Virus record (IMG/VR): IMGVR_UViG_2568526312_000003
Source of the DNA: a virus
Lineage: Duplodnaviria; Heunggongvirae; Uroviricota; Caudoviricetes
Strand: one strand, 5' to 3'
DNA: 30,348 bases
This document shows, piece by piece, positions 6,241-6,555 of the stretch; positions within the stretch are counted from its first letter, which is position 1, and each line of letters opens with the position of its first letter. A program made the position numbers and the translations under genes. The notes under the pieces were generated by a model. That model had not been told where the DNA came from. It was given only the letters and a program-made list of their open reading frames with translations, and searched no databases.

Positions 6241-6555
6241 TTAGCATTTTTTTGACCGCGCGTTTCCGGACGTATTCTGTTCTCCTGTCCCTTTATATCG
6301 TCGGAATACCCGCCGCTCTTCAAATCCCATTCCCAACTCAGAATGTAGTCTGTTGACCGCTTGTTTTATTTCTGTCAGGTTCATCGGTGAAACCGGAGTC
6401 CGGCGCGCCTTACGCAAACACTCTGCTCGTTTCTGTGCCGCCACTTTTCTTTTCTGGTCATCACTTAGCTGTACCATCACTTTTGCCCATCGTTCAGCTG
6501 CTCTCCGGTACAGTCCTTTTTTCTCCAGACATTCTGCCAGGTGATCATGTAGCAT
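6241..6555 (-). CDS. PerC/Pch-family transcriptional activator-like protein
   Basis: 104 aa with AECLEKKGLYRRAAERWAKVM, a PerC-like signature as recalled; strong SD (ggagg) upstream; moron position between lysis genes and cos. Confidence 0.5.
   Translation of the reverse strand: MLHDHLAECLEKKGLYRRAAERWAKVMVQLSDDQKRKVAAQKRAECLRKARRTPVSPMNLTEIKQAVNRLHSELGMGFEERRVFRRYKGTGEQNTSGNARSKKC

Follow-up and report, generated by a model that had tools for sequence, protein, structure and literature searches.

By every sequence-level comparison made here, the 104-aa open reading frame (ORF) under study is pchC, a PerC-type virulence regulator that has already been named and characterised. The window in which it lies is the whole stretch of DNA that was analysed, 30,348 nt of a Caudoviricetes sequence (IMG/VR record IMGVR_UViG_2568526312_000003). 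Almost certainly, pchC is a moron in the slot between Rz and cos of prophage Sp14, and its product de-silences LEE1/ler, with the regulation proposed below. The weak points of this explanation concern regulatory details only, and nothing contradicts the identification of the gene. The literature already covers the gene, the prophage, the function and a good part of the regulation, and the feature is in this respect ordinary and well known; the only mildly new angle would be that pchC appears to share the DicF/anti-Shine-Dalgarno (anti-SD) control while Sp14 lacks dicF. The coordinates of the features discussed are listed in Table 1.

Table 1. Features in and around the Rz-to-cos slot of the window (positions in the window)
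Feature	Position	Strand	Evidence or remark
Terminase small subunit Nu1, downstream slot border	5031..5540	-	PF07471, E = 1e-18; also in the annotation of Sakai and of FRIK944
Lambda-type cos site, cosN GGGCGGCGACCT with adjacent sequence	5691..5735	-	Exact 45-nt match; 0 in shuffles
YlcI/YnfO family gene (DUF3950, 74 aa)	5935..6159	+	PF13132, E = 1e-19; NF041551 (NCBIfam); phrog_949
Hairpin with A5/T5, predicted bidirectional intrinsic terminator	6178..6204	.	Folding on both strands
pchC CDS (group-1 Pch, PerC family)	6241..6555	-	PF06069; nucleotide identity to Sakai ECs_2737
Predicted anti-SD element GUGAUGACC in the pchC CDS, +92..+100	6456..6464	-	Partition-function fold
AT-rich upstream region and leader of pchC, 464 bp	6556..7019	-	GC 27-34%; Shine-Dalgarno at 6562..6566
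46-aa ORF, coding status uncertain	6797..6937	-	phrog_2157, E = 1e-35
Rz spanin, last lysis-cassette gene, upstream slot border	7020..7487	-	PF03245, E = 2e-46
Rz1, embedded in Rz	7082..7267	-	Sakai annotation of Rz/Rz1: endopeptidase and lipoprotein

The ORF list gives the gene on the minus strand with an ATG start, and a Shine-Dalgarno sequence, GGAGG, is located 6 nt 5' of this ATG. The initial annotation had pointed to a PerC-like signature, and the motif it quoted, GLYRRAAERWAKVM, indeed forms residues 14-27 of the translation, within a full-length match to the Pfam PerC family (PF06069, E = 2.2e-44, 150.1 bits against a cut-off of 22.6) that covers profile positions 1-89 of 90. Among the PHROGs, phrog_994 matches the ORF (E = 2e-45), and its N-terminal half also matches several 'transcriptional activator' families. 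The coding sequence (CDS) is the same as that of Sakai pchC (ECs_2737, annotated as pchC, 'PchABC family transcriptional regulator') at every nucleotide, and the proteins are likewise identical. The 2.1-kb stretch around the ORF shows 100% identity to many Escherichia coli O157:H7 chromosomes, the annotation of which calls the gene 'PerC family transcriptional regulator' and its two neighbours 'lysis protein' and 'YlcI/YnfO family protein'. Nucleotides 16, 172 and 183 serve to distinguish pchA, pchB and pchC (Uhlich et al., PMC5931665). At these positions the window reads C/A/A, as does Sakai pchC, against G/G/C in pchA and C/G/C in pchB, and these are the positions at which the window gene differs from pchA (all three) and from pchB (172 and 183).

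The similarity to PerC and Pch proteins, on which the initial annotation had beforehand let its proposal depend, proved decisive. The window protein is 98% identical to PchA (2 residues differ) and 99% identical to PchB (1 residue), and an alignment with PerC of the enteropathogenic E. coli (EPEC) plasmid pMAR2 gave 49% identity (47.1% over residues 2-88 by tblastn to NC_011603.1, E = 1e-17), with Y16, R17, R18, A19, A20, R22, W23, A24 and A39-A44 invariant between the two. That the prophage may carry a virulence regulator was an understatement, for the gene is named and has been studied experimentally. Among 5,426 complete E. coli genomes, 672 have group-1 pch sequences (median copy number three), and the genomes that carry the exact pchC sequence are O157:H7. 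When the phage collection was searched by tblastn, a single record, a fragment of 1.6 kb, was found, and pch-bearing prophages are thus essentially absent from this collection. A sequence search of the PDB with PchC gave no relatives at E <= 1, and the single-sequence AlphaFold2 model was unusable (mean pLDDT 50.4, pTM 0.31); secondary-structure prediction gave an all-helical protein.

Positions 1 to 27,381 of the window are colinear with Sakai prophage Sp14 (CP-933U in EDL933) at 99.93% identity, and the first 25 kb are about 100% identical to O157:H7 strains. Sakai carries the LEE with ler (ECs_4588), and since the identity of the host is O157:H7, we infer that the LEE is present in the window's own host as well. 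The prophage had been described as lacking stx, and this holds: no stx was found in the window, nor is any annotated in the aligned Sakai Sp14. Instead, the region between Q and the holin gene contains three tRNAs, a TerB-like gene, a DUF3927 gene, a SASA-family esterase and IS1203/IS629. The tRNA genes are of the ileZ-argN-argO type (13664..13910, minus strand) and are found downstream of Q, where Stx phages have stx. IS1203/IS629 (IS3 family, 9381..10690) is inserted between the holin and the SASA-family esterase, as in Sakai Sp14, and contains its programmed-frameshift ALIL pseudoknot at 9717..9833 (121.5 bits). Other RNA matches on the minus strand are STnc100 sRNA at 12718..12890 (100.8 bits) and the sok antitoxin RNA of a hok/sok locus at 16826..17000 (114.9 bits). 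In Sakai Sp14, two genes for type III effectors, espJ and tccP/espFU, are located just outside the window, past the tail-fibre genes (3711..5702 of the Sakai Sp14 locus). With pchC, espJ and tccP, Sp14 thus combines an activator of the LEE with effectors secreted by the LEE system.

The gene and its cassette, with the same neighbours in the same prophage, are without any difference from Sakai Sp14, and the two prophages differ elsewhere: in the window, the gene for the terminase large subunit has one C more, and ISEc8 is inserted in the integrase gene. The extra C, at 4790, causes a frameshift in the terminase large subunit (3130..5058, minus strand), which splits into ORFs 3130..4824 and 4775..5116, and in strain FRIK944 this gene is likewise annotated as 'frameshifted'. 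ISEc8 (IS66 family, 2,440 bp, 27379..29818) interrupts the Sp14 integrase gene, has the 8-bp sequence TACCAGGC as a direct repeat on either side, and is 99.96% identical to ISEc8 of Sakai Sp4. This insertion is absent from Sakai and FRIK944, and its junction with the integrase gene gave no match of at least 99% among complete RefSeq E. coli genomes; the best junction matches, at 97.7%, were to non-O157 strains with ISEc8 between two integrase fragments. Because the terminase gene is frameshifted and the integrase gene is disrupted, this copy of the prophage is defective, with pchC intact.

The location that had been proposed for the ORF, between the lysis cassette and cos, is correct. The genes 5' of pchC on the same strand encode Rz/Rz1, lysozyme, YdfR and holin, and downstream of pchC there is an exact copy of the 45-nt lambda cos sequence, which begins GGGCGGCGACCTCGCGGG, followed by the gene for Nu1. 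The accompanying claim that pchC is a moron is supported as well, since related prophages hold other cargo in the Rz-to-cos slot and the composition upstream of pchC is distinct. Strain 98224 has an identical Nu1 protein (WP_000235436.1), a similar Rz and a 'TonB family protein' gene in the pch slot, and strain Nord8 has Rz, a 71-aa ORF and YlcI, and no pch. The 98224 'TonB family protein' has 108 aa (1800..2126 of the 98224 locus), and its gene is oriented like pchC and represents another moron at the same site. Sequences resembling YlcI are far more widespread beside cos than group-1 pch. The GC content over 6500..6999 is 27-34%, whereas Rz and lysozyme have 52-56%. A conserved unit can be recognised at each of the three Sakai pch loci, and it comprises the end of Rz, the 46-codon ORF, the AT-rich leader, pch, the hairpin and the 3' part of a ylcI-like gene. 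In phage lambda, bor sits in the Rz-to-cos slot. The bor gene and other morons of this slot, the content of which is variable and host-beneficial, have the same position on the lambdoid map as pchC, but pchC differs from bor-type morons in its late-gene orientation and in encoding a regulator, not a surface protein.

A small gene convergent with pchC had been reported, and the 74-aa ORF of the YlcI/YnfO family on the opposite strand, 81 bp away, is this gene. The label 'DNA-binding' that the initial annotation gave to it can be no more than putative: the gene belongs to DUF3950, a domain of unknown function, its product weakly matches a HicB-like family among the PHROGs (E = 0.0075), and a PDB sequence search with it gave no relative at E <= 1. 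It had also been suggested that the two genes share a terminator, and the 81-bp gap does contain a hairpin that folds on both strands, for which the role of terminator is predicted. The hairpin combines a GCGAC/GTCGC core with an A5/T5 extension into a 10-11 bp stem on either strand (z = -1.9 to -2.2), and it is identical 3' of pchA, pchB and pchC. A simple consensus terminator scan did not include it among its calls, in our reading of the sequence presumably because the T-run is consumed by the A-T extension of the stem.

The closest known systems are those of PchA (ECs_1091, Sp4) and PchB (ECs_2182, Sp11), both of 104 aa, which are found in the same cassette from the end of Rz to the hairpin as pchC and activate LEE1/ler like PchC (PMC5931665, PMC4764244). 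At residue 58, PchC has Met where PchA and PchB have Val, and at residue 7, PchA has Val where the others have Leu. In Sp4, IS629 replaces the sequence beyond the pchA hairpin. When the three proteins were compared for their effect on ler::lacZ, the strength decreased in the order PchB, PchA, PchC (PMC5931665). PerC of EPEC belongs to the same Pfam family and shares 47-49% identity over residues 2-88, including the YRRAA-RWA motif, but it is encoded on pEAF plasmids such as pMAR2, as the third gene of perABC, and not on a prophage, and with 89 aa it is without the 15-residue basic C-terminal tail of PchC. According to a passage in PMC4764244, PerC also activates the LEE1 promoter. The dependence of the LEE on these regulators differs, as LEE expression in EPEC requires PerC under certain conditions only, while enterohaemorrhagic E. 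coli (EHEC) cannot do without Pch (PMC4764244). PchD and PchE of EHEC and YfdN of the K-12 prophage CPS-53 are prophage-borne members of the PerC family like PchC (PMC5931665, PMC6265319), but by their published description they form sequence groups 2 and 3 and affect ler hardly or not at all. PchE acts instead as a repressor of csgD/curli and flagella (PMC6265319, PMC7369912).

The function of the group-1 genes has been established experimentally. They are needed for full expression of ler and espA and for adherence, as stated in a passage of PMC6265319 that cites Iyoda and Watanabe (2004) and Porter et al. (2005). Fukui et al. used a triple pchA pchB pchC mutant, worked out the mechanism with PchA, and found that Pch activates LEE1 only when this promoter is repressed by H-NS/StpA/Hha/YdgT (PMC4764244). 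Expression of Pch lowered the occupancy of LEE1 by H-NS in vivo, in vitro Pch excluded H-NS from LEE1 promoter DNA, and Ler-dependent activation of other LEE promoters was enhanced by Pch (PMC4764244). For PchC itself, the activity of a ler::lacZ fusion in MG1655 rose from 1,577 to 7,783 Miller units, about 5-fold (PMC5931665). Based on these data, PchC is almost certainly a small basic, predicted all-helical protein that binds AT-rich DNA silenced by H-NS, above all the LEE1 promoter, where it lowers the occupancy by H-NS and StpA and thereby raises ler transcription. Ler and Pch then jointly de-silence the rest of the LEE and co-regulated effector genes, and this de-silencing leads to type III secretion and attaching-effacing adherence.

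How pchC is transcribed can be proposed from its surroundings. The phenotypes of pch mutants imply expression in uninduced EHEC (PMC4764244), and in the lysogen pchC probably has its own promoter somewhere in the 464 AT-rich bp upstream, with a transcript that probably ends at the hairpin that it has in common with the ylcI-like gene. The only sigma-70-like match upstream of pchC (6787..6759, 9/12) comes from a scan of 5500..7600 that found 3 such sites against 3.7 in shuffles, and as this count is not above the shuffle expectation, we do not claim a pchC promoter. The upstream regions of pchA, pchB and pchC are conserved, with scattered substitutions. Rfam gave no family match in 5500..7600, and the minimum free energy of the leader fold (-85..+116) was no better than that of shuffles (z = 0.06). 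The 46-aa ORF in this region is open upstream of all three genes, but 8 of its 46 residues vary among the copies, against only 3 of 315 nt in the neighbouring pch CDS. It carries the name 'unknown protein encoded within prophage CP-933R' in EDL933 and is not called in the PGAP annotation of FRIK944; it could be coding, or merely be part of the pch regulatory region.

After prophage induction, Q-antiterminated late transcription should also run through pchC, since the gene is on the late-gene strand and a simple scan found no terminator-like site on the minus strand between Rz and pchC. This predicted read-through fits published data, in which pchC rose about 8-fold after SOS/prophage induction, as the most induced group-1 copy, and reached 90.7 RPKM in SNP-resolved RNA-seq, compared to 7.7 for pchA and 11.4 for pchB (PMC5931665). 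The coupling of pchC to the late transcript has in this way been partly anticipated by the published SOS-induction data.

A further layer of control may act on translation. In passages of two reviews (PMC7873438, PMC7769764), an anti-SD element inside the CDS is described as preventing translation of pchA, with the ribosome binding site being freed by the sRNA DicF. When the region from -60 to +140 of pchC was folded, the Shine-Dalgarno region, GGAGGUCAC, paired with the predicted anti-SD element, GUGAUGACC, with a probability of about 0.78. The 5' end of DicF, UUCUGGU, is complementary to ACCAGAA at +98..+104 of pchC, which overlaps this element. The three genes pchA, pchB and pchC do not differ over +92..+104, and the Shine-Dalgarno region of pchC is the same as that of pchA; judged by these comparisons, the DicF/anti-SD control of pchA probably applies to pchC too. 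To our knowledge, the literature contains no test of the DicF dependence of pchC, unlike that of pchA. The energy of the full-length DicF-pch duplex, -46.7 kcal/mol, is about 2.2 standard deviations below the mean of 604 background tiles, several of which scored better, and the 5' 24 nt of DicF gave a z of about -2.8 and ranked 6th-7th among the background tiles. Since these values are unexceptional against the window background, the duplex energy is consistent with the literature and does not constitute independent evidence.

Sp14 keeps dicB (about 23662..23850 of the window), and DicF was not found in the window by Rfam at the gathering threshold, around dicB at E <= 1, or by a pattern search of the window with an approximate 26-mer query that allowed 3 mismatches. 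A weak STnc100-like match is present near dicB (23476..23694, 29.5 bits, below gathering). Sp4, the carrier of pchA, has a full DicF of 76.9 bits adjoining dicB (5733..5784 of the Sp4 locus), in contrast to Sp14. Because Sp14 no longer encodes DicF, this sRNA would have to come from Sp4-type prophages. Translation of pchC would then probably be gated, with the anti-SD element at +92..+100 sequestering the Shine-Dalgarno sequence until DicF from other prophages opens it in trans. That both layers operate together, with pchC being part of the late transcript of Sp14 after induction and its translation depending on DicF from Sp4-type prophages, is a tentative proposal that we consider possible but rather doubtful.

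Other explanations for the presence of this gene have to be weighed against a role in LEE activation. Not every member of the PerC family acts on the LEE, as PchD gave no change in ler expression and PchE less than 2-fold in the ler assay (PMC5931665), and PerC-family genes are found on plasmids of Salmonella, Klebsiella and Pantoea, hosts that have no LEE. It is nevertheless barely conceivable that the window encodes a paralogue without a LEE role, like PchD, PchE or K-12 YfdN: its sequence is identical to pchC, which excludes a non-LEE paralogue of the PchD/E kind, as pchC itself has been shown to activate ler::lacZ (PMC5931665), and the protein is only 2 and 1 residues away from PchA and PchB. 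The gene might also be a silent, redundant duplicate, with pchA and pchB being sufficient. The three near-identical copies per genome would agree with this, as would the finding that deletion of pchC alone minimally affected the curli phenotype (PMC6265319), but pchC is the highest-expressed group-1 copy after induction (PMC5931665), and its CDS, Shine-Dalgarno sequence and leader are intact, which makes silence very improbable.

More can be said for a role in the phage itself, in which PchC would act as an anti-H-NS de-silencer that boosts AT-rich prophage DNA during induction, with LEE activation as a co-opted side effect. The position of pchC directly after Rz on the late-gene strand, with no intervening terminator, its rise of about 8-fold on SOS/prophage induction (PMC5931665), the binding of Pch to many chromosomal sites besides the LEE (PMC4764244), and the matches of the N-terminal half to phage 'transcriptional activator' families are all in line with such a role. 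However, relatives with the same Rz and Nu1 lack pch and carry unrelated cargo, and since related prophages do without the gene and have other cargo in the slot, pchC is not a core phage function. Moreover, the Sp14 copy is defective in terminase and integrase, yet pchC is perfectly conserved, which points to selection through the host, and cultures that have not been induced also require group-1 pch genes to express the LEE (PMC4764244). We therefore regard a primary role in the phage as unlikely.

The reading of pchC as a moron of Sp14 that encodes an activator of LEE1/ler places the window gene among PchA, PchB and PchC, the master activators of the type III secretion island LEE in EHEC. 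If, as tentatively proposed above, transcription of pchC on induction is coupled to the late operon of Sp14 and its translation to DicF from Sp4-type prophages, this copy could activate the LEE only when two or more different prophages supply their signals. PchA, PchB and PchC show that prophages without stx still shape virulence.
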